The notes below the pieces were generated by a model. It was given only the letters and a program-made list of their open reading frames with translations. It had not been told where the DNA came from and did not search any database. Below are positions 7,044 to 45,390 of a stretch of DNA of 51,766 nucleotides, in pieces. The DNA comes from Bacteroidia bacterium (lineage in GTDB: Bacteria > Bacteroidota > Bacteroidia > JANWVE01): positions 1 through 51,766 of the forward strand of contig JANWVW010000001.1 in the NCBI GenBank assembly GCA_025056095.1, in the 5' to 3' direction. Every line of letters begins with the position of its first letter. Position 1 is the first letter of the stretch. Position numbers and translations under genes: made by a program.

Positions 7044-7054
7044 AAACTAGACTG

Positions 7055-7062
7055 CAAATATA
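7055..7062 (-). promoter_or_regulatory. -7 promoter box TATATTTG
   Basis: Plus-strand caaatata is TATATTTG on the minus strand, 11 nt upstream of ATG 7043. Confidence 0.4.
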
Positions 7063-7184
7063 CCTTGATTTTTTGCTTAATGTTTTCAAAAAATTGATGA
7101 AGTTAAAAAATCCAACTTAACTCAAAATGCAGTTTATTGAAAAAAGATTGATAAAGAAGTATTTTTTAATATGAGAAAAGTATC

Positions 7185-7192
7185 TATTTTTG
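7185..7192 (+). promoter_or_regulatory. -7 promoter box TATTTTTG
   Basis: TAnnTTTG match 12 nt upstream of ATG 7205. Confidence 0.4.
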
Positions 7193-7204
7193 CAGGAAAA
7201 ACTT

Positions 7205-12332: not shown

Positions 12333-12448
12333 TTTTGGGCGTGCCCCTTGCTGACGCAAGGGTCGGGGCATTCCGCACGTAGCCTGTAGCACGCCGACCT
12401 TGCCCACACCAGCGCAAGCGAAGTGTGGGCAAGGGCACGCCCAAAAAA
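12333..12448. repeat. GC-rich palindromic intergenic element, short form (reverse orientation, stem variant 1)
   Basis: TTTT-GGGCGTGCCCCTTGCtgacGCAAGGG...CCTTGCCCACACcagcgcaagcgaaGTGTGGGCAAGG-GCACGCCC-AAAAAA. Sits in the divergent mtaB / CHAT promoter region. Confidence 0.9.
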
Positions 12449-15500: not shown

Positions 15501-16820
15501 CGCGTACTCAATATGAGTAAAGAGAAAATTCAAGCGGAAGGAATTAACCAAGCTCAGCTGGAAAATGAGCTAGATGATTTAGAAAAAGAACTGTCTTTAC
15601 TTTCTGAAGAGTTTGCCCGAAACTACGAACGTAAAAACTATACTTGGAAAGATGTACAAAAGCAATTAGGTAAAAATGATGCTGCCGTAGAGATTATTCG
15701 CTTCAAATGTACGCATGGTAAGTACAAAGACTCTATTTGCTACGCGTATTTGATTGTAGATAAAAAAACTAAAAAAGCACCTAGCTATGTATTAGAAACC
15801 GATGGCAGAGCTATGGAAAAAATGCACATTCTTGCGTATCGTAGGTCGGTCAAGAATGCTATTGATGATCCATATTCTTATGGAGTGTTTTGGGAGAAAA
15901 TAGATAAAAAAGTGGGCAATAAGATGAATTTGTACGTGTCTTCTGATGGAGTGTATCATCAACTTAACTTAAATACTCTGCTACAACCTGATGGTAAGTA
16001 TGTAATTGAAAACCATAATATTCGTTTAGTAAGTAACACAAAAGACCTTGTTGAATACAAAAAATTGGAGAAATCTCGGACTTCAAATAGTGCAACTTTT
16101 TTTGGCTACCCTGACTACAACGCAAAAATTATCATTCCTAAAAATGAAATAAAATCTGATGAGCTTAAAGAATATAAATTAGCTGAATTACCTGGTACTA
16201 AAGAAGAAATAAGCGATATTTCCAAGCTATGTGCAGAAAAAAACATTAACCCTAAAATGTATCTCGGTACAGAAGCTTCTGAAGAAATGATTAAAAAAGC
16301 GGCTAAAAATCCTGCTATTTTACACATTGCTACACACGGTTTCTTTTTAGCGCAGACTAACCGCGGTCGTGAATTAGGTATCAATACAGAAGCTGCGGCT
16401 AAGCATCCACTTTTACGTTCAGGGCTTATGTTAGCAGGTGCGAACTTAGCTATCAACAACGAATTAGATCAGGAAAGCAACAACGGTATTCTTACAGCTT
16501 ACGAAGCCATGAATTTAGACTTGAATAATACAGAGTTGGTTGTAATGAGCGCTTGCGAAACAGGCTTGGGCGAAGTACGTAATGGTGAGGGAGTATTTGG
16601 TTTACAGCGTTCTTTCATGGCTGCGGGGGCAAAAGCTACCTTAATGAGCTTATGGAAAGTTAGTGACGCTGCTACGAAAGAATTGATGATATTGTTCTAT
16701 AAATACTGGCTACATGAGGATTTACCTAAGCACGTTGCTTTTCGCAAAGCACAATTGGAGCTCAAAAATAAGTATCCTCATCCTAAGTATTGGGGTGCTT
16801 TTGTAATGGTTGGAATGTGA
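12564..16820 (+). CDS. Exported TPR-repeat / CHAT-domain (caspase-like) protease
   Basis: 1418 aa. Signal peptide MKVCRICLLSLLLLTCINATAQ. About 850 aa of TPR-like helical repeats, then a coiled-coil linker. The C-terminal CHAT domain has ILHIATHGFF (His, codon 16335-16337) and VVMSACETGLG (Cys, codon 16554-16556). Confidence 0.8.
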   Translation: MKVCRICLLSLLLLTCINATAQSKKVNLSKADLLVHKQHFKKAFDYAAKKHQQYIRKNPNDTLVGYLAAKTGYYALLAKKYDKAHQYALEAEGFYQNRSLTRHYMYAYVNTLLGAIELAKHQYKKTDSYLEKGLSIIENNLQNQPEIDIRNAEVYRTYAFTLETLLRLQIERQELQKAIQTAQKLCTINEKFTKQRKLERTKSIPQARYGVGLSLYARALHLKQDFNAADSVFYLASKQINRALSKKSEAYYTHLLYHSDSYLAKGDYSKAYNRAKEALNIATHKFGKKSTQRIATQIQIAKVNYTRKRYNAILKDFRKFSKYKPRKKQDPLQWSQAMLWIAMAEYQTKRPKSANTHFQRALKYAKQKYPTTSWEYTQILNQVYQYYLTIKDYGSAEQTLNQIMQNIEEYMGKNYLAYALYEDELGKLYMEKLAQYKEALPLLKDAYQYKNTEIKHNSESYISTATALARLLQNIGQYSEAVPVFEEVKNLREQNIGRRKNILYALAVSDLAVIKADMGKYDEANKLITQLGDPEEYKAGNNLVAYNKFLENIADMYRKTGKYKEAEDILMKSFRTSKKADAQVQAANSVVALADLYVSLGKYDDAEPLCDKAIELVAQRNGKNSLEYANVLNTKAKLLYYMGRYTEAAPISTEATKIIKEKVGEKQKVYVESLGIETDIYVAIGDYEKSEQQAKTMLYLNEQLGGKNTLEYAKTLIRLGKIAYLQGVNVLASEAKNSKAEAQRLFQVSEKYYTDGINIMQNVLKENKLEYSLALTDLANLYAVTQRDKEAEETYKKAIEIEKSQVGDKNPRYATALFNLAQFYTSRGKYTESGELYEKVLEIREENLPEGHPDYTDALMGYAGYAWRTNDLKNAEKSFTNAITQYQKQIKTYFPALTEIERVKYITKLKFQFDEFISFAFDQIDRNPNLLGFVYNHQLQTKALIFNTSTKIRRRIMNSGDSTLIMKYQLWLEKREELARVLNMSKEKIQAEGINQAQLENELDDLEKELSLLSEEFARNYERKNYTWKDVQKQLGKNDAAVEIIRFKCTHGKYKDSICYAYLIVDKKTKKAPSYVLETDGRAMEKMHILAYRRSVKNAIDDPYSYGVFWEKIDKKVGNKMNLYVSSDGVYHQLNLNTLLQPDGKYVIENHNIRLVSNTKDLVEYKKLEKSRTSNSATFFGYPDYNAKIIIPKNEIKSDELKEYKLAELPGTKEEISDISKLCAEKNINPKMYLGTEASEEMIKKAAKNPAILHIATHGFFLAQTNRGRELGINTEAAAKHPLLRSGLMLAGANLAINNELDQESNNGILTAYEAMNLDLNNTELVVMSACETGLGEVRNGEGVFGLQRSFMAAGAKATLMSLWKVSDAATKELMILFYKYWLHEDLPKHVAFRKAQLELKNKYPHPKYWGAFVMVGM

Positions 16821-21658: not shown

Positions 21659-22020
21659 TTTTTTTGGGCGTGCCCTTGCCCCCACTTCGCTGCGCTTGTG
21701 TAGGCAAGGTCGGCGTGCTACGGGCTACGCTGACGCTTCGGTGCTACGCTTCGCTCCGCACTGGGCTAACGCCCACCCTCCGCATGCCTCACGCAAGGAA
21801 TCTCTGAAACAACCGTTTTTCTGTTTCTTATGCAAAGTTTTAGCTTGTAAGTACTTGTACTTCAAGCTTAAACAAGGTAAAGACATAATTGCACAGGTTA
21901 TCTGCGTGAGGGGCATGGAGCATGCCCGCAAGGGCAGTACGAAGCGTTAGCGAAGTACCGAAGCGAAGCGCAGTGCGGAATGCCCCGACCCTTGCGTTAG
22001 CAAGGGGCACGCCCAAAAAA
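21659..22020. repeat. GC-rich palindromic element, long composite form (short element carrying a ~244-bp nested insert at 21730-21973)
   Basis: The ends are identical to the short form (GGGCGTGCCCTTGCCC...; ...tgcggaatgccccgaCCCTTGCgttaGCAAGGGGCACGCCC). The insert has its own inverted termini and an AT-rich core (21787-21911). Collinear with the copy at 37632-37988. Confidence 0.9.
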
Positions 22021-22058
22021 TAAAATCATTTTTTACATTTGACAAAACCCTACACGTC

Positions 22059-22100
22059 AAAAAAACAGGCTAGCCCGTTGTAAGTAGAAGGCTAGCCTGT
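22059..22100 (-). terminator. Rho-independent terminator of the respiratory operon
   Basis: Perfect 11-bp stem ACAGGCTAGCC / GGCTAGCCTGT (22065-22100) followed on the minus strand by a T7 run (plus-strand A-run 22059-22065). Located about 26 nt after the stop at 22126. Confidence 0.75.
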
Positions 22101-22125
22101 CTGAAGTTTAGTTGAAGCAGGCAGA

Positions 22126-24117
22126 TTACTGCTTTTTATTTTGCTCATCCTTTGGAGGTTCTGGTTCTTTGGGCTTCACAGCATCCTTTTTACCTTTGCT
22201 TTTTAAGAACTCTTCTCTGCGTTTCTTTTCCATTTCTCTATCTCTTACATAGAGTTTATATAGGCGCTCTCTTTCATTAAAGTTAGTGTAATCAGGGTTA
22301 ATTCCTAACATGCCATCATAATTATAGTGCAAGGTATGCGCAGAGTTCTTTTCAGCAAGGGATTGAATGTAGTGTATTAAATACCATTTGTATTGCTGTG
22401 CGCGAGTAAGTCTCTCATATTCAGGTAAAGAGTCAAATTGTTTTTTAGTAGGGAGTTTTTCTAAGAATCCTTTGACCAGCTCTACATCCTCTTTGGTAAA
22501 CATTGCTTTACCTTGATTATTTACTGCCGATGCGATAGAGTTGAGGAATTCATCGGATAGGATGCTTTTTGTAATTACCATGAAGTTAGCATCGGCATAA
22601 ACAGGCATGGGACCTCCTGCAATACCTGCGGTCAAGTGTCTGTATAATGACCATGAGTCTCCTCCACCTTTGAATATACCGTTGTTATAGTTGGCAATTT
22701 TGAGTTTACCTCCCCAAGCATCTAAGCTGGCGTGGAAGTTATATTGGTCAGCAGCGGGGCCATCTGCGTGTCCATCACCGCCATGACATTGCCAGCATTG
22801 CTGAATAATATACACTGCTCTTCCCATTTTTTCTGTTTCGCGTGTGCGAGGAGGTTCGTTATCAGGGATACTTACTTTTTTACCAGGTTTTTCTTTGGCA
22901 TAGCGAGGTGAGAAAGTTTTAATGTAATCAATTACGTACCATTTGTCTACATCGCTCATTTTGTAGCCCACAGTGTGGTCATGCCAAGAGGGCATAGAGG
23001 AACCTGCTAAGCCTTTGACCAAAGTACGATAGATGTCCCAGTCCAGAGGTAGAGAAGAAGCATCGGTAGAACGGAACTTGTAAATACCTTGCTCAAAGTA
23101 GCGGGGTTTGGGTTTTAAGAATGGGTCTGCGGGTCCATTGAAATAGATCATGTACTCTCCTTTGCTTTTGTTTTTCTTCATTTGAATTGTATCCCACCAT
23201 TCTTTTGGGCGAGGTAGCATTCCACGATACTTAAAGTAAATGTTCTCTACATTAGGAACTAGTAGGACTTGTTTGAGCCAAGAGAAGTCGAACTTTTGAA
23301 TATTGACCTCTAATTGTTTTAACTTGGTTTCGCTGACGTACATGTCTAAATCGCGTAGGTAATAAAGTGCGTCAAGCTTGCGATTTTTGTTTTGAGGGTC
23401 AGGTTCTACATCAGCCACTTTGTCCGCAATAACCATTCTACCATGGCATCCTGAGCATTTCTTTTCATATATCTCTTTGCCTTTCGCAATTCTGACACTC
23501 ATGGGTTCTGATGTGATTGCAGTGGGAGTAGGAATTTCAGTACCTGTTGGAACATTGTAATTTCTCCACTCACCGATATCTTTACCGAGTCTTTGCATGT
23601 AAGCCAAGAGAGCTGCGCCATCTGCGTTCATTTTAGGTACGCGTTCTCCATCTGCATTGAGTTCTGTACCTTCAAATAACCAAGTGAAAGAAGGCATCAA
23701 GCTTTGAGGTACGGTATAGCGAGGGTTATAAAAATGAGCAATGTGCCAATCATCTGTTCTTTTACCTCCTTCACGGCTTAAATCTGGACCTATGCGGCGT
23801 GTTCCAAAGGTATGAGGTCTGTCAAATGCGTATTCACCTTCTTGGGATACAGGACCGTAGTATGCATTTTCATTGATAGTAGGTCTAACGAATTGCGAAT
23901 GGCAATACCAGCATCCTTCACGTAAGTATACTTTGCGCCCCCTTGCTTCTAATTCAGTATAGGGGTGAGCATAGACTTTTTCTCCTTTGTAGTTGATGAG
24001 TTCATCTGTTTGCGTACCTTTGAGTAACATTGGTAACACAAGCTGAATGGCTACAGCAAGGAAGAAAAAACCTATGCCTGCTACTAATGCAATGGTCTTG
24101 AATCTTTCCAGTAACAT
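22126..24117 (-). CDS. ccoO: cbb3-type oxidase subunit II (CcoO/FixO-like) fused to a long C-terminal dihaem (CcoP-like) extension
   Basis: N-terminal TM anchor. CcoO signature GRKVYLREGCWYCHSQFVRP...FGTRRIGPDLSREGGKRTDDWHIAHFYNPR...SLMPSF. Two further CxxCH motifs (CSGCH, CWQCH) are separated by a region of roughly 200 aa without recognisable motifs. Lys-rich tail. Confidence 0.8.
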   Translation of the reverse strand: MLLERFKTIALVAGIGFFFLAVAIQLVLPMLLKGTQTDELINYKGEKVYAHPYTELEARGRKVYLREGCWYCHSQFVRPTINENAYYGPVSQEGEYAFDRPHTFGTRRIGPDLSREGGKRTDDWHIAHFYNPRYTVPQSLMPSFTWLFEGTELNADGERVPKMNADGAALLAYMQRLGKDIGEWRNYNVPTGTEIPTPTAITSEPMSVRIAKGKEIYEKKCSGCHGRMVIADKVADVEPDPQNKNRKLDALYYLRDLDMYVSETKLKQLEVNIQKFDFSWLKQVLLVPNVENIYFKYRGMLPRPKEWWDTIQMKKNKSKGEYMIYFNGPADPFLKPKPRYFEQGIYKFRSTDASSLPLDWDIYRTLVKGLAGSSMPSWHDHTVGYKMSDVDKWYVIDYIKTFSPRYAKEKPGKKVSIPDNEPPRTRETEKMGRAVYIIQQCWQCHGGDGHADGPAADQYNFHASLDAWGGKLKIANYNNGIFKGGGDSWSLYRHLTAGIAGGPMPVYADANFMVITKSILSDEFLNSIASAVNNQGKAMFTKEDVELVKGFLEKLPTKKQFDSLPEYERLTRAQQYKWYLIHYIQSLAEKNSAHTLHYNYDGMLGINPDYTNFNERERLYKLYVRDREMEKKRREEFLKSKGKKDAVKPKEPEPPKDEQNKKQ

Positions 24118-24134
24118 ACTTGCCTATTCCTACC

Positions 24135-25664
24135 TTACTTTTGGACAGTTATAGTTTCTTTCAATGCTAGTAATTCCTCTATTTCTTTTGTACGTTGTTT
24201 AGGTTCAATGAAATCGTCAGTAGCATTAGGTACTTTCTGACCTTTTACTACAGTAAGTATAATGTTAATAGCGTATAGAATTTGGCTAACATCAGATAAC
24301 CAGCCAAAGAAGGTTCTCATTTCCCAATAAGGTATCATGGCAGCCATTGAGTCTACAAAGTCTATTCCTGATGCCCACATTTGACCTTGTAGAGGACCTT
24401 GGAAAGTAAGTACAGCTAACATTCCTGTTAGTCCGATAACGGTTAGCCACCAGTGCCAATCCGCAAGTGCTTTACTGTATAATCGCCTACCCGTAACTCG
24501 GGGAATGACATAGTACCCTCCTGCTGAAATAAAGAGAATAAATGCTCCGTAAGTAGCCATGTGTGCATGTCCTACTACAAAGTCTGTAAAGTGTGTAAGG
24601 TCTTGTACTGCGCGGAATGATTCTAATGAGCCTTGTAGAGAGCCTAAGAAATACCAAAATGCTCCCAATAGCAAAAAGCGTACGCCGTGATTTTGATTAA
24701 AGCGTTTCCAATTGCCTGTCATAGTACCGTAGAAGTTTTGAGTTACAGTAAGTACAGGTACCATCAATAGCCATGAAGTGGCAATAGCGATATCTTGGAC
24801 CCACTTAGGTAGTGGCGAGTATAAATAATGATGGGCACCTACAAAAGGATAGACTAGCGCAATTGTCCAAAAACCTATTAAGGAGAGTTTATGGCTGTAT
24901 AGGGGTCTTTGTGCTGCTAATGGTAAAAAGTAATAAATGATAGCTAATCCGCCAGGGGTTATGAGTAGCCCTACTGTGTAGTGCAAATATGCGCCGTGTA
25001 AATTCATATTGTCTACACCCCAAGTGAAGTTTGGTATGATGACGTATCCAAGAATGAGGTTCATGCTTGCCCATATTACACACACAGTAAGATACCACAA
25101 GGATACATACATTTTTTCTTCTTTACGAGTAAGAATAGTAGTCAAAACGGTAGCTGCGAACATTGCAAAAGCTATAAACAAGGGTATAGATGCATAGGGT
25201 CCTAAATCTGCTACTTCAATTCCTGGGTTATCTCCTATCATTACCGAAATAAATCCCACTATCAAAGACAAATTCCATAGTGTAAAAATCGCCCATCCCA
25301 TTTTAGGTCCGAACGCCATGCGCCTGCCTGTGAGCTTGGGAATCATATAGTATGAAAGTCCCATTAGGAAAGTGCCAAACCCAGCTAGTGCCATACCTGA
25401 GGTATGAACAGCACGGAATCTGCCGAAGTGTGTCCACATAGAATGTCCAAACCAGGGCGCATGAAACTTCATAGCCAGGAACCAGCCTGCGGCCTGTACA
25501 AAGCCTAGCCAAACTGCAGCGGTTATAATGAATGCAATTACAACAGGTGTATCAATTAGCTTCACTTTGGGCATATCCGCAAATAGAGCGGATAGTGAAC
25601 CTGTGGAAGCTTTTTGTTCTTTTGTATCTGCTTTTATGAAAGCTTTTATTGTACTCATAGTCAA
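24135..25664 (-). CDS. ccoN: cbb3-type (C-family) haem-copper oxidase subunit I
   Basis: FGRFRAVHTSG (low-spin haem His), YLHYTVGL (CuB His), ALVYPFVGAHHYLY (Tyr six residues before the HH CuB ligands, as in CcoN) and FVVGHAHMATYG (HxH haem ligands). 12 TM-like segments. Confidence 0.88.
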   Translation of the reverse strand: MTMSTIKAFIKADTKEQKASTGSLSALFADMPKVKLIDTPVVIAFIITAAVWLGFVQAAGWFLAMKFHAPWFGHSMWTHFGRFRAVHTSGMALAGFGTFLMGLSYYMIPKLTGRRMAFGPKMGWAIFTLWNLSLIVGFISVMIGDNPGIEVADLGPYASIPLFIAFAMFAATVLTTILTRKEEKMYVSLWYLTVCVIWASMNLILGYVIIPNFTWGVDNMNLHGAYLHYTVGLLITPGGLAIIYYFLPLAAQRPLYSHKLSLIGFWTIALVYPFVGAHHYLYSPLPKWVQDIAIATSWLLMVPVLTVTQNFYGTMTGNWKRFNQNHGVRFLLLGAFWYFLGSLQGSLESFRAVQDLTHFTDFVVGHAHMATYGAFILFISAGGYYVIPRVTGRRLYSKALADWHWWLTVIGLTGMLAVLTFQGPLQGQMWASGIDFVDSMAAMIPYWEMRTFFGWLSDVSQILYAINIILTVVKGQKVPNATDDFIEPKQRTKEIEELLALKETITVQK

Positions 25665-25673
25665 AAAGAATTG

Positions 25674-26597
25674 TTACCTACCTATAATTTCAAAATTTAG
25701 TTCTGTTTTTGCACCAGGTTTAATTTCTACCTCTTTCTCTACCACATAAGGGGGCTCAAATGTATAGGAATAATCTCCGTTATCTTTTTTCTCCTTGTTT
25801 GCTATTTTATATCCTTCATGCCAAGCGCGAACTTTGTACTTTCCAGGGGGAATATCTTTAATTTCAAAATTACCATTGTTGTCGGTCAAAGCATTATAAG
25901 GATGATTTACAGCAATAAAATACGCGTTCATCCAAGTATGACCTGCATCACAGACCATAGGGAAGACACCTGCCTGAGTAATTTCTTTGACAATTTCTTG
26001 ATCTTTAAGAGGCATAGCTTCATTGAATAGATTATTGGATTTACCTTCATCAGTGTAGGCGTGTACATTGTGCAGAATAGGGTCACTGTTTCTGAGCTTA
26101 GCTTTTGCTCCTACTGCAACTAGCTGAATATGTGGTGTATAGAAGCATCCTTTTTGATCTAGTAGTACGTCTTTTTTCTCCAAAGCTTTACCTTTGGTAA
26201 TGTTGACGATAGAGATCCACGTATTAGCTAGTCCCCCTCCTGGACCTACAATAATGCGATCAGACTTTAGTCTTCCACCTTTTACGCCACATTTATCTGC
26301 ATCTTTAACTACTACGAAGTCTTCTACGGTTGGATTACCTTTGAAGGTAACTTTGCCTGCTAAAGTTCCTCCGTTCTTAACTTCTTCTACGGTATATTCG
26401 CCTGATACAATTTCAGTGGAGCTACTTGAAGCACTAGCTGCATTTTCTGCTCCACCCTTTTTCTCACCACTACTCTCTAATGCAGTTCTCAATGAGTCTG
26501 CATTACCTGTAACTAGTGGCTCGCGTACTGCCTTGCTCTTGCAAGCCACTAAGCCCACCAAACTAACTGCAATTGCGAAATGAATGATTCTTTTCAT
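25674..26597 (-). CDS. Lipoprotein with cupredoxin-like domain (putative type-1 copper site) and C-terminal carboxypeptidase-regulatory-like beta-sandwich
   Basis: Lipobox LVGLVAC and a Ser/Ala-rich linker. FYTPHIQLVAVGAKAKLRNSDPILHNVHAY ... MVCDAGHTWMNAY gives a His...Cys-x3-His-x2-Met arrangement. The C-terminus reads NGNFEIKDIPPGKYKVRAWHEG. The functional call is tentative. Confidence 0.45.
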   Translation of the reverse strand: MKRIIHFAIAVSLVGLVACKSKAVREPLVTGNADSLRTALESSGEKKGGAENAASASSSSTEIVSGEYTVEEVKNGGTLAGKVTFKGNPTVEDFVVVKDADKCGVKGGRLKSDRIIVGPGGGLANTWISIVNITKGKALEKKDVLLDQKGCFYTPHIQLVAVGAKAKLRNSDPILHNVHAYTDEGKSNNLFNEAMPLKDQEIVKEITQAGVFPMVCDAGHTWMNAYFIAVNHPYNALTDNNGNFEIKDIPPGKYKVRAWHEGYKIANKEKKDNGDYSYTFEPPYVVEKEVEIKPGAKTELNFEIIGR

Positions 26598-26650
26598 GAT
26601 ACTGTATTAATAATAGGTAAAAATATTTTTTTTGCTTCATATTTTTGTTT

Positions 26651-26684
26651 CACTGGGTAGGTAGAAGCAGTACCCTACCCAGTG
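26651..26684 (-). promoter_or_regulatory. Intercistronic stem-loop within the respiratory operon
   Basis: Perfect 11-bp inverted repeat CACTGGGTAGG / CCTACCCAGTG in the 113-nt gap between the octahaem and cupredoxin genes. No U-run follows on the transcribed strand. Confidence 0.5.
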
Positions 26685-26710
26685 CTTTCTACTATCAGTT
26701 TAGAATGTGG

Positions 26711-29700
26711 TTACTTATGTTTATTTTGAGTTTTTTTAGGTTGTGTTTTTTTCTTATCTTCTTGTTGCGCCAGGTTAGAGTTCATGTAGAACAGATAGTC
26801 TCTGATAGCTTCGCCTTGGTACCTTGCCATAGCTTTGGCGTCCATACCTAGTTTTGCCAAGTTGCTATCAGGTACTGCTGTCATAGTGTAGCCTTCTCCG
26901 AAGTAGTTGGGCATATTAACGCCTGGCATTAGGCTGGCAGGCCAACCAATCCATTCGTATACATACTGTGGTTTTAAGCGTTCATAGACCATACCTAAGT
27001 TAGGTGCGAGTTTTCCTGCTTTAGTTTGTTCCTCCATTGAAGGGCCGCTGATATAATGACAACTCACACATTGGAATTTTTCAAATAGTGCCTTGCCCAT
27101 TGCTATTTTTTCAGGAGTAGTCGGAATATTTTTGTAGTTTTCAATATTTACGTGTTTTTTCTTAATAGCCAAGAAATAGCGTATGGCGTAGCCCCATTCC
27201 TCATCTGAATGTTGGAAAGAGGGCATGCGTACTTTTAACCATGGCCTAATTCCGTAGCCGTCAAGCTTTGGATTATTAAAGAATTTAAGCAGCCAGTCTT
27301 CTTGTGTTTTGATACCTTGATGAGTTAGTAAAGGTGGTCGGTTGGTAGGTTCAGGAATTTGTTGATGAATGTACGCACCCTTGTAATCCTCGATTTGGTG
27401 GCAGCCAATACAGTTGTTGTCCCTAACAAAGTATTGTCCTGCATCATAGTTTGCATTGATTTCTGTGTATTGAGGTTGATACTGTGTGCTGATCTTACGA
27501 TTTGTCCAACCTTTAATAGCTACGGCAATTGCTTCTACTTCGGTTTCATTTAATCCAAAGTTGGGCATCATGAGAGGAATACGATTAGTAGAGTATTGGC
27601 GTGGATCGCGTATCTTTCCTTTAATCCAACCTTCCCAAGTGTGTCCAATGTTGTATTTATCTCCGCGTATTGTGTTACCGAAGTCAAATTCATGTGTGGT
27701 CTTGTCTGCTTCTTCGGTTAAAGACACGCTAACGTTGCTTAGTTTGTTAATGTCTTCGCGGATATTGTGGCATCCGTAGCATCCGAGCATTTTGACCATT
27801 TTTTCTCCATTCGCAATGTTGTTAGCGTCTTTGAGTGAAGCCATATCTATGGGTTTGAATTTATGTTTTTCGGATTTTTTGAGAGTCATTAGGTATGCGG
27901 TAATATCAGCTGCTTCTTGCTCTGTAAGCCTCATGCTAGGCATTTTGGTTTCAGAATAGTAGTGCTTAGGATTGATTAGCCAATCAAATAGCCAATCAGG
28001 ATTTACTTTTGAACCTACTTTGTTTAGATTAGGACCGAACCCTGGACCTTCTCGTAAAGCAGGAGTTTTAGAGATAGACGCCCAATCTATTTTGTCTACA
28101 CTATGGCACCCTGTACAGCCAATTTGTAGAGTTAGTGTTTTTCCATTTACAGGATCACCGTTACCTGGATATTTTAGAGGTTTGTATGTAGTATCTTTTT
28201 CTGTTAGGCTATTGAGAAATGCAGTTATATTACGAGCATCAATTTCTTCAAGGTAGAAGTTAGGCATTCTGGTATGAGGATAGAAGTCTTTGGGGTTGAG
28301 TAGCCAATTATATACAAACTCGGGGTTATCTTTTTTCATCACGTAAGCTAAGTTGGGTCCTACCTTGCGGACAGGATATTTTTCTTGATTAGGGACTGCA
28401 TGGCATCCATTACATCCGAGATCGAACACTAACTTTTTACCTAACGAAACTGTTTCAGCCATTGGCAGATTGATGGCTGTACTATGGCAGCTTTGGCAGC
28501 TGGCTTCTACAAACTTACCTTGTAGAAGGGGTCTTTCCCAATAGTGGTCGTAGTCAGGTTCACCGTGTCTTGAATGGGCATGTGAGGCTTTGAGGGCTCT
28601 CCCTTGTCCTGCATGGCAGCTAATACAGCCCATTTTTTCAATATTGTGAACTCTCATGATTTCAGGACTGTGGTATTGTAACGGATCCTTGCGAATGGCC
28701 AGCCTATTTCCTGATACTTTTACTTTACCTTTATAGTGTTTCGCTACCTCTTCAAGAATTTTCTTTTGCTCTTCGGGTTTTTTGGCTTCATATTCATCTG
28801 CACTAACAGGGGCATGGAATTTCCAGTGCATTTCTGCAAACTCTTCGTAAGATACTTCTTTGAATTGACCCTTGTAGTACTTTTCACTAAATAATGAGTC
28901 ATTCCATGCAGCATGACAGCTTTGGCATCTGTCAACTTCCATGTTATACTCCCCAAAATTGTTAGTGCCGTAGTTTCTCATTATTACTTGCTGAACTTTA
29001 ATTCTTTTTTCATTGTAAGCTTTTTTCGCTGCTTCTAATGCAACTAGCTTTCCTTTAAGTGCTTCAATTTTGGCTTCTAGATCGTTGATAATTTTTTCAT
29101 ATTTATCTAATTCTACTTTTTTCTCATCACGTTTTCGGCGAGTTTCTTCTACTTGTTTAATTTTGCCTTCAATTTGTACTTTGTAGTTGTCCAGCTTTGC
29201 TTTGAGTTTGTTTGCAGTGCTATAATCGTTCTTTTTAAGTGCTTCTGTATATGCGTAATAGTCTTGTGAGTCGTATGCTTTGATATCTGCTAATTCTCTA
29301 TTGAATTCACGAAGTTGAGTAGCCAACTTGTAATATTCTTCCGATAACTTAACATAAGCAGGGTATTTTCGCAAAGAGTCTTTCGCACGTGCTTTGGCAG
29401 CTTCTAATTCAGCCAGGCGTTTGCGAAATTGTTCACCGTTTTTAGTTTCTATTGCGCTTTGAAGAGAATCTACAATTTTTAATCCTGCTGTTTTGTATTC
29501 GTTTATCCATCTTTTCCATGGGCGGCGTTCTCTACCCGAAAACTCATTAAAAGCTGCATAAACCGTAGACAAAAACAACAATCCTGAAAAAATCATGTAC
29601 ACGGTAGCATAATTCCGTGTTTCAACAGGATCTTTAGCAAGCCCGCGAATATTTCGCCAGCTTAGCTCTCTCGCAGCAGTCTTTACATCAACACTAAGTT

Positions 29701-29752
29701 GAGTAAGACTTTCTCTTATGCTATTTCCTAAATTTTTGAAAAAACTTCTCAT
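26711..29752 (-). CDS. Membrane-anchored octahaem c-type cytochrome with long coiled-coil region
   Basis: 1013 aa. TM helix at about aa 48-68 and a K/E-rich helical region at about aa 85-250. Eight CxxCH motifs: CQSCH, CISCH, CQSCH, CNGCH, CTGCH, CYGCH, CIGCH, CVSCH. The last five lie in class-I-like modules with GPNL...MP signatures. Confidence 0.85.
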   Translation of the reverse strand: MRSFFKNLGNSIRESLTQLSVDVKTAARELSWRNIRGLAKDPVETRNYATVYMIFSGLLFLSTVYAAFNEFSGRERRPWKRWINEYKTAGLKIVDSLQSAIETKNGEQFRKRLAELEAAKARAKDSLRKYPAYVKLSEEYYKLATQLREFNRELADIKAYDSQDYYAYTEALKKNDYSTANKLKAKLDNYKVQIEGKIKQVEETRRKRDEKKVELDKYEKIINDLEAKIEALKGKLVALEAAKKAYNEKRIKVQQVIMRNYGTNNFGEYNMEVDRCQSCHAAWNDSLFSEKYYKGQFKEVSYEEFAEMHWKFHAPVSADEYEAKKPEEQKKILEEVAKHYKGKVKVSGNRLAIRKDPLQYHSPEIMRVHNIEKMGCISCHAGQGRALKASHAHSRHGEPDYDHYWERPLLQGKFVEASCQSCHSTAINLPMAETVSLGKKLVFDLGCNGCHAVPNQEKYPVRKVGPNLAYVMKKDNPEFVYNWLLNPKDFYPHTRMPNFYLEEIDARNITAFLNSLTEKDTTYKPLKYPGNGDPVNGKTLTLQIGCTGCHSVDKIDWASISKTPALREGPGFGPNLNKVGSKVNPDWLFDWLINPKHYYSETKMPSMRLTEQEAADITAYLMTLKKSEKHKFKPIDMASLKDANNIANGEKMVKMLGCYGCHNIREDINKLSNVSVSLTEEADKTTHEFDFGNTIRGDKYNIGHTWEGWIKGKIRDPRQYSTNRIPLMMPNFGLNETEVEAIAVAIKGWTNRKISTQYQPQYTEINANYDAGQYFVRDNNCIGCHQIEDYKGAYIHQQIPEPTNRPPLLTHQGIKTQEDWLLKFFNNPKLDGYGIRPWLKVRMPSFQHSDEEWGYAIRYFLAIKKKHVNIENYKNIPTTPEKIAMGKALFEKFQCVSCHYISGPSMEEQTKAGKLAPNLGMVYERLKPQYVYEWIGWPASLMPGVNMPNYFGEGYTMTAVPDSNLAKLGMDAKAMARYQGEAIRDYLFYMNSNLAQQEDKKKTQPKKTQNKHK

Positions 29753-29776
29753 CAGTTTTCTTTTCTCTCCTTTCTT

Positions 29777-30694
29777 TTAGAAATTAATCCATGGGGTTGC
29801 AAGCACATACTTCACATTCAAGGTCAATCGCAAAATAATTTTTATAGGCATTGTCATACAGGTAAGCACAAAGAAAGAAACCGTTGCGTAACGTAGAGGT
29901 CCAAGCTTTTTAACTATGTCTTTATCTTTTGTTGCACGAGGTAGAATAACTTTCTTCAGTAGTAAATTTCCAAAGAAATAGTAGCCTATGATAGAAAGCG
30001 AACCGATAATTATATGTCCTGTGTTGATAGAACCGTCTACATTTTTGGCAGGGAATTTTCCGAATAGTTCTGGCCAATCTCTACTATTGGCAGCTACTAC
30101 CTTGTGTGCATCCCATTCTTCCCAAGGAAAGAAAAAGTTCCATCCTGGACCTCTAAGTAGTGTTCCTAGTATAATCAAAAATACCCAAAGGATAAGAAAA
30201 CCAAACATAAAGAAACCTATTGCAAAACGTCGCTCTTTCCATGTATAGTAGCCATTTCCTTTGGGATTGATATCTACATACGGTATAGCCATTAACCCTG
30301 CTTGGATTAAGAACGGGAATACAATTCCTGCTAGCCAAGGATCAAAGTATACTAACATTTCTTGTAATCCCAAGAAATACCAAGGTGCTTTTGATGGGTT
30401 AGGGGTTCTGCCAGGGTTTGCAGGTTCTTCCAAAGGTGCATCAATACCTACGCTCCATATAGTAAGTATGAGAATAACCACAATAGAAGTGAGAAACTCA
30501 ATTCTTACTAAGTAAGGCCACACTTGCACACGGTCAGTCATGCTAGCTTCCACAGGGGTACCTAAGCGATCGTTTCGAAGCGCTTTGCGCATTGACTGCC
30601 ATGTGTAGAAAATCACCAAAGCTAACATACCAATGATTGGTACGTTGTCAGGTAATGAAACTAAATGCCAAAAATTTTTTAATCCTTCTTGCAT
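29777..30694 (-). CDS. Cytochrome b C-terminal part (b6f subunit-IV-like), extended multi-TM form
   Basis: EPANPGRTPNPSKAPWYFLGLQEML aligns with the subunit IV / cyt b Qo loop (PEWYF replaced by APWYF). 305 aa with more TM segments than canonical subunit IV. Confidence 0.75.
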   Translation of the reverse strand: MQEGLKNFWHLVSLPDNVPIIGMLALVIFYTWQSMRKALRNDRLGTPVEASMTDRVQVWPYLVRIEFLTSIVVILILTIWSVGIDAPLEEPANPGRTPNPSKAPWYFLGLQEMLVYFDPWLAGIVFPFLIQAGLMAIPYVDINPKGNGYYTWKERRFAIGFFMFGFLILWVFLIILGTLLRGPGWNFFFPWEEWDAHKVVAANSRDWPELFGKFPAKNVDGSINTGHIIIGSLSIIGYYFFGNLLLKKVILPRATKDKDIVKKLGPLRYATVSFFVLTCMTMPIKIILRLTLNVKYVLATPWINF

Positions 30695-30738
30695 AGGCTA
30701 ATTAGTTTTATGATTTTAATGGATGATATAATTACTTT

Positions 30739-31884
30739 TTAATGATGATTGGTAGAATTGTCATTGGATGTATGCGTATCATTTGTGTGGTGCTTGTCAG
30801 AGGAAGATTTGTCCTCACCGCCTTTGATATTTTGCTCTGCGGCTTGATCTATAACATTAACTAAATTTACAAGTTTGTTAGATGTTTTTTGTTTAAGCGT
30901 TTCTAAATCTTTTTTAATGACTTCTTTGAAGCTTTGTTCGCCCTCTATTTGCTTGAAGCCTTGTACATACTCGTACTTAGGTAGGTGCTCTACTACAGAG
31001 ACTTTGAGTTTGCTAGCATCTGTAACAGCCTTATTAAATTCAATCATAGGAGGACCAGAAATACCACCGTCTTTACGAATGCGCCAGAAGTGTACTGCTA
31101 ATAGCACACCTGTTACCACAGGTAGAAATACTGTATGCAATACGTAGAAGCGTAGTAAAGTGGGAGAGCCTACTTCTGTGCCACCTAAAAGAATGAAACG
31201 AACATCTGCGTCAGGCGCTCCACCAAAGCCTACCAGCTGATGAAATTCAGGGGCAAAAGGTCCTGCATGTCCTAAAAAAGGTACTGCGCGAGCCATGTTA
31301 GAACCTACGGTAATCGCCCATATTGCTAATTGGTCCCAAGGTAAAAGGTAGCCTGTGAAAGAAAGGGCAAGAGTTAGCACTAATAAGTTCACACCTATTA
31401 CCCAGTTAAACTCACGGGGAGGTTTATACGAACCTGTCAAAAATACTCTGTACATGTGTAACATTACGCATATTACCATAGAGTGTGCAGCCCAGCGATG
31501 CATATTCCGTATGAAAGCACCGAAAGGAACATCGTGCATGAGCTGCTTCATATCATTATATGCATACTCAGATGTTGGGCGATAGTAGAACATGAGTAAT
31601 ATACCAGTTACCGCAGTAACAATAAACAATAGCAATGTAATTCCACCCATACCCCATGTATAGCCAATATCTACAGCATGCCTACTAACACGGGTGGGAT
31701 GTAGATGCAAAAACACATTATTGACGATCTGCAAAGCGCGGTTGCGCTTGTTATCTTTATAGTCATGGCGGAATATAGAGGTATAAACTTGGCTTTCATA
31801 GAACTGCTGCAGCAGGTCTTTTTTACCTCCGCTATCCGCTTTTACTACTGGTCTTTTATTCGGTACTTTTATGATATCTGACAT
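30739..31884 (-). CDS. Cytochrome b6-like (N-terminal four-helix) subunit of a Rieske/cyt b complex
   Basis: [40 protein letters not shown] has the helix B His pair spaced 14 apart. [15 protein letters not shown] is present. [33 protein letters not shown] has the helix D His pair with b6-type spacing. About 100 aa of C-terminal extension ends in a His-rich tail. Confidence 0.9.
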
Positions 31885-31929
31885 AGTTATATTATGTTTT
31901 AAGGTTACCTACAATACATGTTTGAAAAT

Positions 31930-32547
31930 TTATCCTTTGTATGGTAGAAATGCTCCAGGCTGATCCCACTGCCCTTTCTCACCTAAAAAGACTACTGCTT
32001 TGTTAATAAGGATTTGTCCATCAGTATCAAGTGTAATTTTATAGCGCTCTAATGGGCGTGGTGCGGGACCTTCAAAATTTACCGCAATTTCTTTCGGATC
32101 AGCCATAATTCCATAGAAACCGCTACCGTGGCATGGGCACTTGAACTTGTTCTCCGCAGGTAGCCATCTGGGCGTGCACCCTAAATGGGTACACACAGTA
32201 CTTTGTGCAATAAATCCCTCTTTTGTGCGAATAATCCATACTTTTTGAGTGGGCTTGAATCTCTCGTCTACTGTGCCTGGTGTGTATTCATTTGGAAAGC
32301 CTGCTTTGAAAGACTTAGATGGCTCATAAATTACGCGGTTGAATAAACCCCTTACAGAACCAAAAACAAATAAACCAAAGTAAGCAAAGAAAGAGCCCCA
32401 TGCAATTTTGCTCAAAAAGCTCCTTCGGTTACCAAAGTATAGATGTCTGTCTTCTTCTACTGCTTTTGTTACAGCAGTATTTTCTGCTTTTGTTACTTCT
32501 TTTGTATTTTCTGCCATGTTTGTATTTCCTTTTAATTTATTCTCCAC
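31930..32547 (-). CDS. Rieske [2Fe-2S] subunit
   Basis: Tat-like NRRSFLSK followed by a TM anchor. Cluster boxes CTHLGC and CPCHGS. An alternative start at 32517 (MAENTKE) would remove the 11-nt overlap with the upstream gene. Confidence 0.9.
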   Translation of the reverse strand: MENKLKGNTNMAENTKEVTKAENTAVTKAVEEDRHLYFGNRRSFLSKIAWGSFFAYFGLFVFGSVRGLFNRVIYEPSKSFKAGFPNEYTPGTVDERFKPTQKVWIIRTKEGFIAQSTVCTHLGCTPRWLPAENKFKCPCHGSGFYGIMADPKEIAVNFEGPAPRPLERYKITLDTDGQILINKAVVFLGEKGQWDQPGAFLPYKG

Positions 32548-32860
32548 TTAAATTACCTGCTGTTAGTAAAACCCCCCTTGCTGCAATTTCGTCATCTTCT
32601 AATATCGCTTCTTCGGGAATTAACTCTCTGTTAAACATTTGAATTACATCCCATGGACAAGGCTTAGCACACCATGCGCAACCTGTACATTGCAGCAAAT
32701 CTACTTGGCAAATAGATGATACCGTCGGATCATCCGCATAAGGATTCGGTACCTTGATGATAGCATCAAATTCACAGAATTCCATACAGACCATACAGCC
32801 TGTGCATCCCGTAGCATCTATAACTGCTACTCTTTTAGATAATCTTTCTACTTTGCTCAT
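32537..32860 (-). CDS. 2x[4Fe-4S] dicluster ferredoxin-like protein
   Basis: 107 aa. CTGCMVCMEFC and CTGCAWCAKPCP (CxxCxxCxxxC(P)) motifs. No signal peptide or TM segment. First gene of the operon. Confidence 0.85.
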   Translation of the reverse strand: MSKVERLSKRVAVIDATGCTGCMVCMEFCEFDAIIKVPNPYADDPTVSSICQVDLLQCTGCAWCAKPCPWDVIQMFNRELIPEEAILEDDEIAARGVLLTAGNLSGE

Positions 32861-33125
32861 AAGTCAATACTTTTAAGTTTAAACATACGTAATAGTTCTT
32901 TTTTTCTACTTTTCCTCTTGTCCTGCAAATTACTACATCCTTTCCCATATATCAAAACTTTTTACAATCCTTATAACACTTTTACTCATCGTGAGTTTCC
33001 AATTTTCAATAAAAATTGAAAATTGATACAGGTGCGAAAATACAAAAAAAATCAAATGTGTCAAATAATAATTTAACTTTTTTACATTAAGTTTGGCTTT
33101 GGACAACATGAAGACAAATTTTTAA

Positions 33126-33244
33126 TTTTTTGGGGCGTGCCCTTGCCCACACTTCGCTTGCGCTTGTGTGGGCAAGGGCGGCGTGCTACGGGCTACGTGC
33201 GGAATGCCCCGACCCTTGCGTCAGCAAGGGGCACGCCCAAAAAA
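33126..33244. repeat. GC-rich palindromic intergenic element, short form (forward, stem variant 1; best-preserved copy)
   Basis: TTTTTT-GGGGCGTGCC-CTTGCCCACAC-ttcgcttgcgctt-GTGTGGGCAAG-ggcggcgtgctacgggctacgtgcggaatgccccga-CCCTTGC-gtca-GCAAGGG-GCACGCCC-AAAAAA. Sits in the divergent operon / fbp promoter region. Confidence 0.92.
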
Positions 33245-37631: not shown

Positions 37632-37988
37632 TTTTTTGGGCGTGCCCTTGTGGGCGTTTCGCTGCGCTCATGCCCACAAGGTCGGCGTGCTTCGGGCTTC
37701 GCTAACGCTTCGGTGCTGCGCTTCGCTGCGCACCGTGCTGACGCACGCCCTTCGCATGCCTCACGCAGGGAATCTCTGAAACCATCATTTCTCTGTGCGT
37801 TATGCAAGGTTTTAGTTTGTAAGTACTTGTACTTCAAGCTTAAACAAGGTAAAGATGTGATTGCACAGGTCATCTGCGTGAGGGGCATGGAGCATGCCGA
37901 TAGGCAGTACGAAGCGTAGCGAAGTACCGAAGCGTTAGCGTAGTGCGGAATGCCCCGACCCTTGCGTCAGCAAGGGGCACGCCCAAAA
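37632..37988. repeat. GC-rich palindromic element, long composite form (stem variant 2; nested ~242-bp insert at 37702-37943)
   Basis: Collinear with 21659-22020 across the whole length, including the AT-rich core (37759-37883). Lies about 100 nt 3' of tRNA-Pro. Confidence 0.9.
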
Positions 37989-38089
37989 TAAAAAATAAAA
38001 AAAACTTCTTTCAAACCTGGTACAATAGCAGCATAAAAGCAGGTTTTTGTTAGGTAGGCTTAGCCGCCCATTAAGACTATTAGGTTTCG

Positions 38090-38163
38090 TCGGGATGGCG
38101 GGATTTGAACCCGCGACCTCTTGCACCCCAAGCAAGTGCGCTACCGGGCTGCGCCACATCCCG
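38090..38163 (-). tRNA. tRNA-Pro (anticodon GGG), CCA not encoded
   Basis: Manual cloverleaf: acceptor CGGGATG/CATCCCG, D stem GCGC/GCGC, anticodon stem CTTGC/GCAAG with loop TT-GGG-GT, T arm GCGGG-TTCAAAT-CCCGC, discriminator A. 74 nt. Confidence 0.93.
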
Positions 38164-45272: not shown

Positions 45273-45390
45273 TTTTTTTGGGCGTGCCCCTTGCTGACGC
45301 AAGGGTCAGGGCATTCCGCACGTAGCCCGCAGCACGCCGACCTTGTGGGCATGAGCACAGCGAAACGCCCACAAGGACACGCCCAAAAAA
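45273..45390. repeat. GC-rich palindromic intergenic element, short form (reverse orientation, stem variant 2)
   Basis: TTTTTTT-GGGCGTGCCCCTTGCtgacGCAAGGG...CCTTGTGGGCatgagcacagcgaaacGCCCACAAGG-ACACGCCC-AAAAAA. Ends 6 nt before the alpha-2-macroglobulin stop codon. Confidence 0.9.

Follow-up and report, generated by a model that had tools for sequence, protein, structure and literature searches.

Does a Bacteroidia bacterium encode the whole path from quinol to O2 in a single gene cluster, and from what parts would such a cluster have been put together? The question is raised by eight consecutive open reading frames (ORFs) on the minus strand of contig JANWVW010000001.1 (GenBank assembly GCA_025056095.1), of which we analysed positions 1 to 51,766, referred to here as the window. 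An earlier note, made from the letters alone, had read these ORFs (22126-32860) as a Rieske/cytochrome b6-type complex joined to a cbb3-type oxidase with extra redox subunits, and had suggested that they are expressed as one unit. The positions of all eight ORFs and their spacings (-11, 45, 44, 24, 113, 9 and 17 nt for the longest ORFs) are reproduced exactly from the ORF list, and Pfam, NCBIfam and PDB sequence searches, together with motif counts, agree with the identity given to each: in order, a ferredoxin, a Rieske protein, a cytochrome b6-type subunit, a subunit IV-like protein, an octahaem cytochrome c, a cupredoxin, CcoN and a CcoO fusion.

As the note had it, the parts for a quinol-to-O2 path are encoded together, and all the subunits needed are identified in this one cluster. 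We consider it likely that the cluster encodes a full aerobic respiratory branch and arose when two existing modules were joined at the cupredoxin gene, which both share; the mechanistic reading, a complete branch from quinol to O2, is well supported by gene content and conservation. The first module would be a quinol:cupredoxin oxidoreductase, made of the Rieske protein, cytochrome b6 and subunit IV with an octahaem wire and without haem cn, and the second a cupredoxin- or cytochrome-c-dependent, divergent cbb3 oxidase, made of CcoN and a CcoO with an absorbed dihaem domain. Quinol, probably menaquinol, would be oxidised at the Qo site; one electron would pass to the Rieske cluster and on through the eight haems, those of bis-His type first and then those of His/Met type, while the second would be recycled through haems bL and bH in a Q cycle. 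From the octahaem chain the first electron would reach the tethered cupredoxin, or the trihaem CcoO directly, or both, and finally the haem b of CcoN and the haem b3-CuB centre, where O2 would be reduced. Homology and gene linkage are the grounds on which we infer which way the electrons flow, that the cupredoxin is the link, that the genes are co-transcribed and which quinone is used. The host bacteria are presumably heterotrophs.

Components of the two modules

The Rieske protein carries a twin-arginine (Tat) motif, NRRSFLSK, and both cluster boxes of the superfamily, CTHLGC and CPCHGS, the boxes being identical in 66 of 66 related loci; the PetC, QcrA and proteobacterial Rieske models all score below their cut-offs. 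The cytochrome b has a four-helix b6-type core with extensions at the N and C termini, its best PDB matches are cytochrome b6 chains, and all four His ligands of haems bL and bH align with those of the cytochrome b6 in 6rqf. The Cys that binds haem cn/ci in b6f (CxGG) is absent, the FYCLGG of b6f aligning with TWGMGG. As in b6f, cytochrome b6 and subunit IV are split into separate genes (PF00033 and PF00032). The subunit IV-like protein has about six hydrophobic segments and twice the usual length, and it scores below the cut-off of the subunit IV equivalog model; it aligns with b6f subunit IV, with APWY (in KAPWYF) at the place of PEWY, and APWY is present in 75 of 75 scorable related subunit IV homologues. 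PEWY and a cytochrome f, both expected of b6f, are thus missing from the cluster, the former giving way to APWY and the position of the latter being taken by the octahaem protein. By the motif in its split cytochrome b, the bc half can be assigned to the Rieske/cytochrome b complexes of the APWY clade.

The octahaem protein begins with a single transmembrane segment and a coiled-coil stretch; three c3/c7-like haems follow, and then five class-I-like domains (Pfam matches to Cytochrom_C, c3_2 and C7). All eight CxxCH motifs are invariant across 17 homologues, as are five Met positions (four of them Met-Pro) of the sort typical of His/Met class-I domains; a PDB sequence search with the protein found no homologue. 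It is predicted to replace cytochrome c1/f in the bc module. The earlier note suggested a giant octahaem protein in the c1/f position; such an arrangement is not new, having already been described (PMC3578206), and it occurs in at least 579 genome loci.

The ferredoxin, having neither signal peptide nor transmembrane segment, is predicted to be cytoplasmic. Seven loci (L003, L005, L009, L013, L019, L029 and L072), mostly labelled Bacteroidota or Ignavibacteria, have a ferredoxin homologue immediately upstream of the Rieske gene, and this recurrence in distant loci suggests that the tie between ferredoxin and bc module is probably functional. In L003, the closest Bacteroidota locus outside the window's own lineage, a gene for an Rrf2-family regulator is found between the ferredoxin and Rieske genes (6755-7558), and just upstream are genes for CtaB, two COX3, SCO1 and DUF420, which are A-family oxidase accessories, along with those for the beta and epsilon subunits of ATP synthase.

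For the cupredoxin, which the note had guessed from the sequence, both the predicted fold and the conserved ligands bear the guess out. The gene product has a lipobox (LVAC) and a cupredoxin domain joined to a CarboxypepD_reg-like beta-sandwich. An AlphaFold2 model of this 307-aa lipoprotein (pLDDT 83) has as its top Foldseek matches 5fc9 (a Nitrosopumilus cupredoxin), plastocyanins, amicyanin and pseudoazurin, with E-values from 2e-6, target TM-scores of 0.7-0.8 and a probability of 1.00, as expected of a cupredoxin fold. Residues H176, C216, H220 and M223 (CDAGHxWM) align with the type-1 Cu ligands of 5fc9 and are invariant in 36 homologues. The lipoprotein is accordingly modelled here as a predicted type-1 (blue) copper protein.

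In an alignment of CcoN with its counterpart from Rhodobacter capsulatus (6xkw_n), all six metal-ligand His and the cross-link Tyr of helix VII are conserved, at the H of RAVHTS, the H of YLHYTVG, the Y and HH of LVYPFVGAHH and the HxH of GHAHM. The equivalog models are not reached by either oxidase subunit (237 bits against a cut-off of 583 for CcoN on TIGR00780, and 139.5 against 200.65 for CcoO on TIGR00781), and the nearest CcoN relatives outside the lineage are 41-51% identical. CcoN thus has the appearance of a divergent C-family haem-copper O2 reductase with a complete set of metal ligands. CcoO, 663 aa long, is recognised by FixO (PF02433; 161 bits) over residues 49-150. A single transmembrane segment lies at its N terminus, and CxxCH motifs at residues 69, 221 and 441 place two extra haems in a C-terminal extension. 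Residues 334-508 match 6h5l_B (Kuenenia entry 6H5L) at E 9e-27, and they also match, at 40-43% identity, a separate dihaem cytochrome encoded upstream of CcoN in two related loci (L085 and L086); from these alignments, CcoO would have absorbed a dihaem domain. The operon contains no separate CcoP or CcoQ ORF, and a scan of ten flanking ORFs turned up no ccoGHIS-like genes.

Distribution of the modules and their partners

The earlier note proposed a search for the same neighbourhood in related genomes, and the complete order was found in four other assemblies at 85-96% amino-acid identity: a Logan assembly (L001), two metagenome-assembled genomes (MAGs) from NCBI (L083 and L084) and a JGI metagenome contig (L087). 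Because the eight-gene order recurs in this way, it is not a chance product; the cluster is a real, selected unit of one Bacteroidia lineage. Proteins of NCBI MAGs named 'Bacteroidia bacterium' include one that is 100% identical to the cupredoxin and one that is 95% identical to CcoN, in agreement with a Bacteroidota host.

To follow the bc half, an alignment of the octahaem protein was scanned against one genome per GTDB species, which gave the loci counted above, and gene content was read in the best 80. Wherever the contig covers the genes, the order Rieske, b6, subunit IV, octahaem is almost always kept in these 80 loci, which span Bacteroidota, Ignavibacteria, Nitrospinota, Binatia, Poribacteria, Methylomirabilota, Melainabacteria, KSB1 and others. 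Partners were counted in the 56 loci where 4 kb or more of sequence follows the octahaem gene. A cupredoxin is present in 36 of the 56, an A-family oxidase in 11, a bd-like oxidase with extra cytochromes c in 12 and an NXR/Nar-like molybdoenzyme in 2; a C-family oxidase is present in none (0/56), and 31 loci have none of the four partner enzymes. Nor does any of the best 80 GTDB loci place a C-family oxidase beside the octahaem gene in another phylum. That the bc-octahaem module, usually with the cupredoxin, precedes varied partner enzymes in other phyla supports a modular reading of the window cluster. In the one Binatia locus inspected (L031) the cupredoxin gene is the last of the operon, which fits the cupredoxin as the electron acceptor of the bc-octahaem unit, like plastocyanin for b6f.

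Some of these partner arrangements are of interest in their own right. In Poribacteria (L057, 13666-20497; also L037, L040, L046, L054 and others) the bc-octahaem module is followed by a cupredoxin-like protein, a homologue of 'bd-like' oxidase subunit I and several c-type cytochromes, among them a fusion to an EB_dh haem-b domain. An NXR/Nar-like molybdopterin enzyme, with alpha, beta and EB_dh-type gamma subunits and a chaperone, is encoded 121 nt downstream of the octahaem gene in L082 (3658-10194; Melainabacteria) and in L077 (an unclassified MAG). In L167 (3466-10878), where bc genes are absent, an NXR/Nar-like molybdenum-enzyme cluster immediately follows the genes for a cupredoxin and an Rrf2 regulator.

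The reverse search took the 80 metagenome loci with the nearest CcoN and up to 10 kb on each side. No bc genes were found in 79 of the 80, the sole exception being L087, which belongs to the same lineage. Where there is enough flank, CcoN in these loci is typically accompanied by a CcoO::cytochrome c fusion, a dihaem cytochrome and a cupredoxin of the same family, and often by CcoS and CcoI, which the nearest relatives carry, unlike the window operon. Since the nearest CcoN clusters have the cupredoxin without bc genes, it is a regular companion of this cbb3 subfamily too, and the family is common to both parent module types, the octahaem bc modules and these cbb3 clusters. Members of the family are also encoded ahead of a molybdenum-enzyme cluster that lacks bc genes. 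Two conserved proteins with no Pfam family, of about 462 and about 163 aa (L085, 7653-9041 and 13198-13689), are regular in the related cupredoxin-cbb3 clusters, with homologues in many of L088-L125, and are absent from the window operon.

A widespread, unnamed family of lipid- or signal-anchored cupredoxins is identified by these searches, and we found no description of it in open-access papers and preprints. It is probably a common currency between the octahaem bc module and aa3, cbb3 and bd-like oxidases and NXR/Nar-like molybdoenzymes. The junction of the bc module with a cbb3 oxidase, with the cupredoxin as hinge and a ferredoxin in the lead, appears to be confined to one Bacteroidia lineage and to be undescribed; the same open-access literature and preprints yielded no description of the eight-gene arrangement or of the bc-octahaem-aa3 loci of Bacteroidota and Ignavibacteria.

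Does the joining extend from the genes to the proteins? The earlier note suggested that the eight products form one obligate bc-cbb3 supercomplex, with the octahaem protein as a fixed wire touching the oxidase and without a diffusible carrier. All of the parts are co-encoded with short spacers, the octahaem protein, the cupredoxin and the CcoO fusion are each predicted to be membrane-anchored, the cluster has no gene for a soluble monohaem cytochrome c, and the bc-octahaem module repeatedly adjoins genes for terminal enzymes. Supercomplexes of bc1 and cbb3 are known in R. capsulatus and Pseudomonas aeruginosa, and entries 6xkw and 8smr hold matches to both cytochrome b and CcoN (PMC10556555). 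However, in the one Binatia locus inspected the bc-octahaem-cupredoxin unit occurs by itself, and elsewhere it combines with four unrelated partner enzymes, suggesting a generic carrier interface and no dedicated docking surface. The cbb3 junction is also restricted to one lineage, and a lipid-tethered cupredoxin makes a rigid contact needless. The obligate supercomplex is a hypothesis drawn from gene linkage, and we regard it as possible but doubtful.

Transcription signals and further alternatives

The features of the cluster are collected in Table 1. At the first junction, the overlap of 11 nt given by the earlier note is true of the longest ORFs, but with the likely Rieske start, ATG 32517, it becomes a gap of 19 nt; the evidence for this start is the length of 196 aa called for the L001 homologue, together with alignments to relatives that begin at residue 10. 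The upstream non-coding region, which the note put at about 265 nt, in fact measures 393 nt, up to the divergent fructose-1,6-bisphosphatase gene.

Table 1. Genes and signals of the respiratory cluster (window coordinates).
Feature	Position	Strand	Details
Promoter	33035..33065	-	TTTG(ACA) + TATTTTCG block, conserved
Leader palindrome 8-4-8	33003..33022	-	TTTTCAAT-N4-ATTGAAAA
Ferredoxin, 2x[4Fe-4S]	32537..32860	-	107 aa; Fer4 family matches, two CxxCxxCxxxC
Rieske [2Fe-2S] protein	31930..32547	-	Tat motif, membrane anchor; PF00355
Cytochrome b6-type subunit	30739..31884	-	PF00033, 150 bits
Extended subunit IV-like protein	29777..30694	-	305 aa; PF00032; Qo motif APWY
Octahaem cytochrome c, membrane-anchored (predicted)	26711..29752	-	1013 aa; 8 CxxCH
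Intercistronic hairpin	26651..26684	-	11-bp stem, 12-nt loop, no U-tract
Lipid-anchored cupredoxin (predicted)	25674..26597	-	307 aa; lipobox LVAC; AlphaFold fold
CcoN	24135..25664	-	COX1, 237 bits
CcoO fusion, trihaem	22126..24117	-	663 aa; FixO, 161 bits
Intrinsic terminator	22057..22101	-	13-bp stem, 12-nt loop, U7

Upstream of the operon is a block consisting of TTTGACA (33059-33065), a 19-nt spacer counted from TTTG, and TATTTTCG (33035-33042), the match returned by the promoter scan being TTGACA-16-TATTTT. The block would fit the Bacteroidetes -33/-7 consensus. It is identical in four assemblies, where the surrounding DNA diverges. About 12 nt downstream lies the perfect palindrome TTTTCAAT-N4-ATTGAAAA, whose half-sites are invariant in the window, L001, L083 and L084 and whose 4-nt spacer switches between TTTT and AAAA among them; it is a candidate operator or leader hairpin. 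An FNR box (TTGAT-N4-ATCAA) was considered for this palindrome and rejected, as the half-sites TCAAT/ATTGA mismatch. The leader (32861-33030, minus strand, about 165 nt) has several blocks conserved among four assemblies, such as ATGTTATAAGAATTGTAAAA and GTAATTTGCAGGA, and Rfam gave no match in the leader or in the intergenic gaps.

At the other end of the cluster, the terminator that the note had placed at 22059-22100 is real, and consists of a stem-loop followed by U7. Sigma-70-type promoter matches inside the cluster number 33 against 28.3 expected, which is chance level. One conserved promoter, one U-tract terminator and internal matches at chance speak for a single transcription unit of eight genes, but with the hairpin described next this proposal is only partly supported by the sequence.

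A feature missed in the earlier note is a hairpin exactly at the bc/oxidase junction, within the 113 nt that separate the octahaem gene from the cupredoxin gene (-21.1 kcal/mol, z = -4.1). At the corresponding position L001, L083/L084 and L087 have hairpins of -17 to -22 kcal/mol whose stems differ in sequence. RNAalifold gave a poor covariation score on the hairpin alignment; as MAFFT places the window copy out of register there, the sequences were folded singly. Assignment as a canonical intrinsic terminator was rejected because no U-tract follows the hairpin in any lineage member. A full terminator is less likely than a partial stop or an element that stabilises or processes the mRNA, and the hairpin could set different levels for the bc and oxidase halves.

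The hairpin invites a reading in which the halves are functionally linked and separately expressed, a ferredoxin-to-octahaem transcript ending or being stabilised at the hairpin and cupredoxin-CcoN-CcoO being expressed on its own, for example at low O2. The gap is the largest in the cluster, a hairpin is kept there in four lineage members despite differing stems, and the downstream half has the gene content of free-standing cbb3 clusters elsewhere. Such a split is nevertheless unlikely, given a hairpin without a U-tract, internal promoter-like matches at the chance level stated above, and no conserved promoter block visible in the 113-nt gap.

Were the ferredoxin a true cytoplasmic-side bc subunit, exchanging electrons with haem bH and the Qi side, for example via the cytochrome b extensions, the eight products would make up one ferredoxin-linked or bifurcating bc-cbb3 supercomplex. 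It would be a single machine coupling low-potential ferredoxin, the quinone pool and O2, wired by the octahaem chain and a tethered blue-copper protein. The ferredoxin gene leads the operon, and ferredoxin homologues recur beside the Rieske gene in Bacteroidota and Ignavibacteria relatives, but we give this idea only a small chance. Slimmer still is the chance that the haem-copper enzyme is mainly a nitric oxide reductase, or an O2-scavenging protective enzyme, and not an energy-conserving oxidase. The shortfall of CcoN on its equivalog model and a weak match to NorB (4xyd_A) are what one would expect of such an enzyme, but the three CuB His and the C-family cross-link Tyr are all conserved, and cbb3 CcoN chains match at E ~1e-52 as against E 4e-6 for NorB. 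Operation of the bc module in reverse, from a periplasmic donor to the quinone pool with the oxidase merely a neighbour or a side-branch electron sink, seems to us the least probable. The APWY Qo motif, tied by Kao and Hunte to reverse operation (PMC4122944), is present, and there are relatives in nitrite-oxidising and anammox bacteria. Against this, neither the cluster nor its flanks, which are housekeeping genes, encode a periplasmic enzyme that would oxidise a substrate, and the module is hard-wired to O2 reductases of two families in many Bacteroidota- and Ignavibacteria-labelled loci, where only forward flow makes sense.

Several points do weigh against our preferred reading, a complete quinol-to-O2 branch. 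The proposed electron path has no place for the ferredoxin, and neither CcoQ nor the ccoGHIS-type assembly genes are in the operon. The Qo-site Glu is replaced by Pro in APWY, APWY complexes are uncharacterised, and those complexes have been proposed to run in reverse (Kao and Hunte, PMC4122944). With a strong conserved hairpin exactly at the module junction, the halves may not be made 1:1, or transcription may partly stop there. On the matter of direction, APWY complexes are found beside O2 reductases in many loci from several phyla, which argues against reverse-only operation. With the family hard-wired to O2 reductases (cbb3 here, aa3-type elsewhere), the direction of flow is directly testable, and the loci offer a compact eight-gene unit for expression and cryo-electron microscopy.

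The cluster is flanked by unrelated housekeeping genes, the divergent fructose-1,6-bisphosphatase gene upstream and SpoU methylase and cation-efflux genes downstream. A 40-nt GC-rich palindromic element, GGGCGTGCCCCTTGCTRACGCAAGGGTCGGGGCATTCCGC, resembling repetitive extragenic palindromic (REP) sequences, has five copies in the window, against none expected by chance, all of them intergenic: 12337-12376 (+), 21975-22014 (-), 33199-33238 (-), 37945-37984 (-) and 45280-45319 (+). Two copies flank the respiratory operon on both sides; the upstream one sits in the 393-nt region and is absent from the matching spot in L001. The sole RNA gene detected in the window, by Rfam, is a tRNA-Pro (GGG; 38089-38163, minus strand), with a REP-like element about 105 nt downstream of it. 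The window also has two very long ORFs, at 45396-51515 (minus strand, 2039 aa) and 12564-16820 (plus strand, 1418 aa).

Comparison with known systems

Lücker et al. (2013, PMC3578206) described a Rieske-b6-subunit IV-octahaem operon in Nitrospina gracilis; for Ca. Kuenenia stuttgartiensis and Ca. Methylomirabilis oxyfera they reported 'the exactly same operon structure'. The window shares with these the four-gene core and its order, the APWY motif and the lack of a c1/f subunit, and its octahaem protein is 26-35% identical to homologues from Nitrospinota and Methylomirabilota. In the window, however, the core is preceded by a ferredoxin gene and followed by the cupredoxin and C-family oxidase genes, and the host is a Bacteroidia bacterium rather than a nitrite oxidiser, an anammox bacterium or a methanotroph. 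The 'APWY clade' of cytochrome b was defined by Kao and Hunte in 2014, when no member had been characterised (PMC4122944), and a full-text literature search for 'APWY' found no later characterisation. Dibrova et al. placed the Methylomirabilis cytochrome b (DAMO_0768) in a taxonomically mixed subfamily G, together with sequences from Nitrospinae and Candidatus Kryptonia (PMC5600118), and the APWY-type bc half of the window probably belongs to this subfamily.

In Bacteroidetes, alternative complex III is reported to be far commoner than Rieske/cytochrome b complexes (PMC3362086), and the cluster adds a Rieske-type complex III to a phylum where the alternative complex is regarded as the norm. 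The genome paper of Ignavibacterium album was rejected as a precedent, as the type strain is reported to have alternative complex III only. The best NCBIfam matches of cytochrome b and subunit IV are to the Geobacter ExtP/ExtQ/ExtS set (NF040969-71), which also gives a partial match to the octahaem protein. Assignment to that set was rejected, since the scores fall below the cut-offs (278.7 bits vs 290 for cytochrome b on ExtP, its best match, 54.8 vs 150 for subunit IV, and 66.5 vs 100); the cluster context differs, and the models are named for a selenite/tellurite reduction operon.

Co-encoded bc-oxidase units were said in the earlier note to be best known from Actinobacteria. They are not limited to that group, A-family junctions being present in loci labelled Bacteroidota, Ignavibacteria, Methylomirabilales and Binatia, and a type C junction in Melainabacteria (PMC6349859). 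The A-family (aa3-type) loci (L002, L008-L010, L013-L016, L029, L041, L044 and L053) share with the window the series Rieske, b6, subunit IV, octahaem, cupredoxin and then oxidase subunit I, some with an upstream ferredoxin. They differ in having COX1/COX3/COX2 with CtaA and CtaB where the window has CcoN/CcoO, and their octahaem proteins are about 33-35% identical to that of the window.

A combination of complexes III and IV in Melainabacteria is said to have been noted by Soo and colleagues in 2017. Matheus Carnevali et al. (2019) described Melainabacteria type C oxidase genes directly downstream of petB/petC as a complex III/IV combination, also citing Obscuribacter (PMC6349859, Supplementary Note 6). 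As in the window, b6-type petB/petC are directly upstream of ccoN and ccoO, which are partly fused; the phylum is another one, and octahaem protein, cupredoxin and ferredoxin are unmentioned in the paper, with which the comparison is by description. Two Melainabacteria octahaem loci were retrieved, one with a molybdenum enzyme (L082) and one that ends at the contig edge (L081), and neither has a C-family oxidase.

The major Qo motif of Actinobacteria is PDWY (Kao and Hunte, PMC4122944). In the qcrCAB-ctaCDEF clusters of these organisms, which encode an obligate CIII2CIV2 supercomplex, bc and oxidase genes are linked as they are in the window, and a multihaem c replaces a soluble cytochrome c; PDB matches of our cytochrome b include 7q21, 6adq and 6hwh. 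The actinobacterial oxidase is of the A family, QcrC is a dihaem protein and cytochrome b is long and unsplit. No cupredoxin is known to be involved in that supercomplex.

In R. capsulatus and P. aeruginosa the bc1 and cbb3 genes are not known to be encoded together, and the carriers are cytochromes c, either soluble or tethered. Their bc1-cbb3 supercomplexes (6xkw, and 8smr, PMC10556555) unite the same pair of enzyme classes, with matches to the window proteins at E 1e-52 for CcoN and E 1e-29 to 1e-33 for CcoO, but contain a classical long cytochrome b, a monohaem c1 and a separate CcoP. The b6f complex with plastocyanin resembles the first module in its split b6 and subunit IV and in having a cupredoxin as the likely electron acceptor; the window differs in lacking the haem cn Cys and cytochrome f, in having APWY for PEWY, and in a lipid-anchored cupredoxin with an extra beta-sandwich.

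The novelty claimed in the earlier note was overstated. The components and both kinds of linkage have precedents, and what is new is the junction between the bc-octahaem module and a cbb3 oxidase. By analogy, the functional parallel to this cluster would be b6f with plastocyanin, and its genetic parallel the actinobacterial qcr-cta arrangement.

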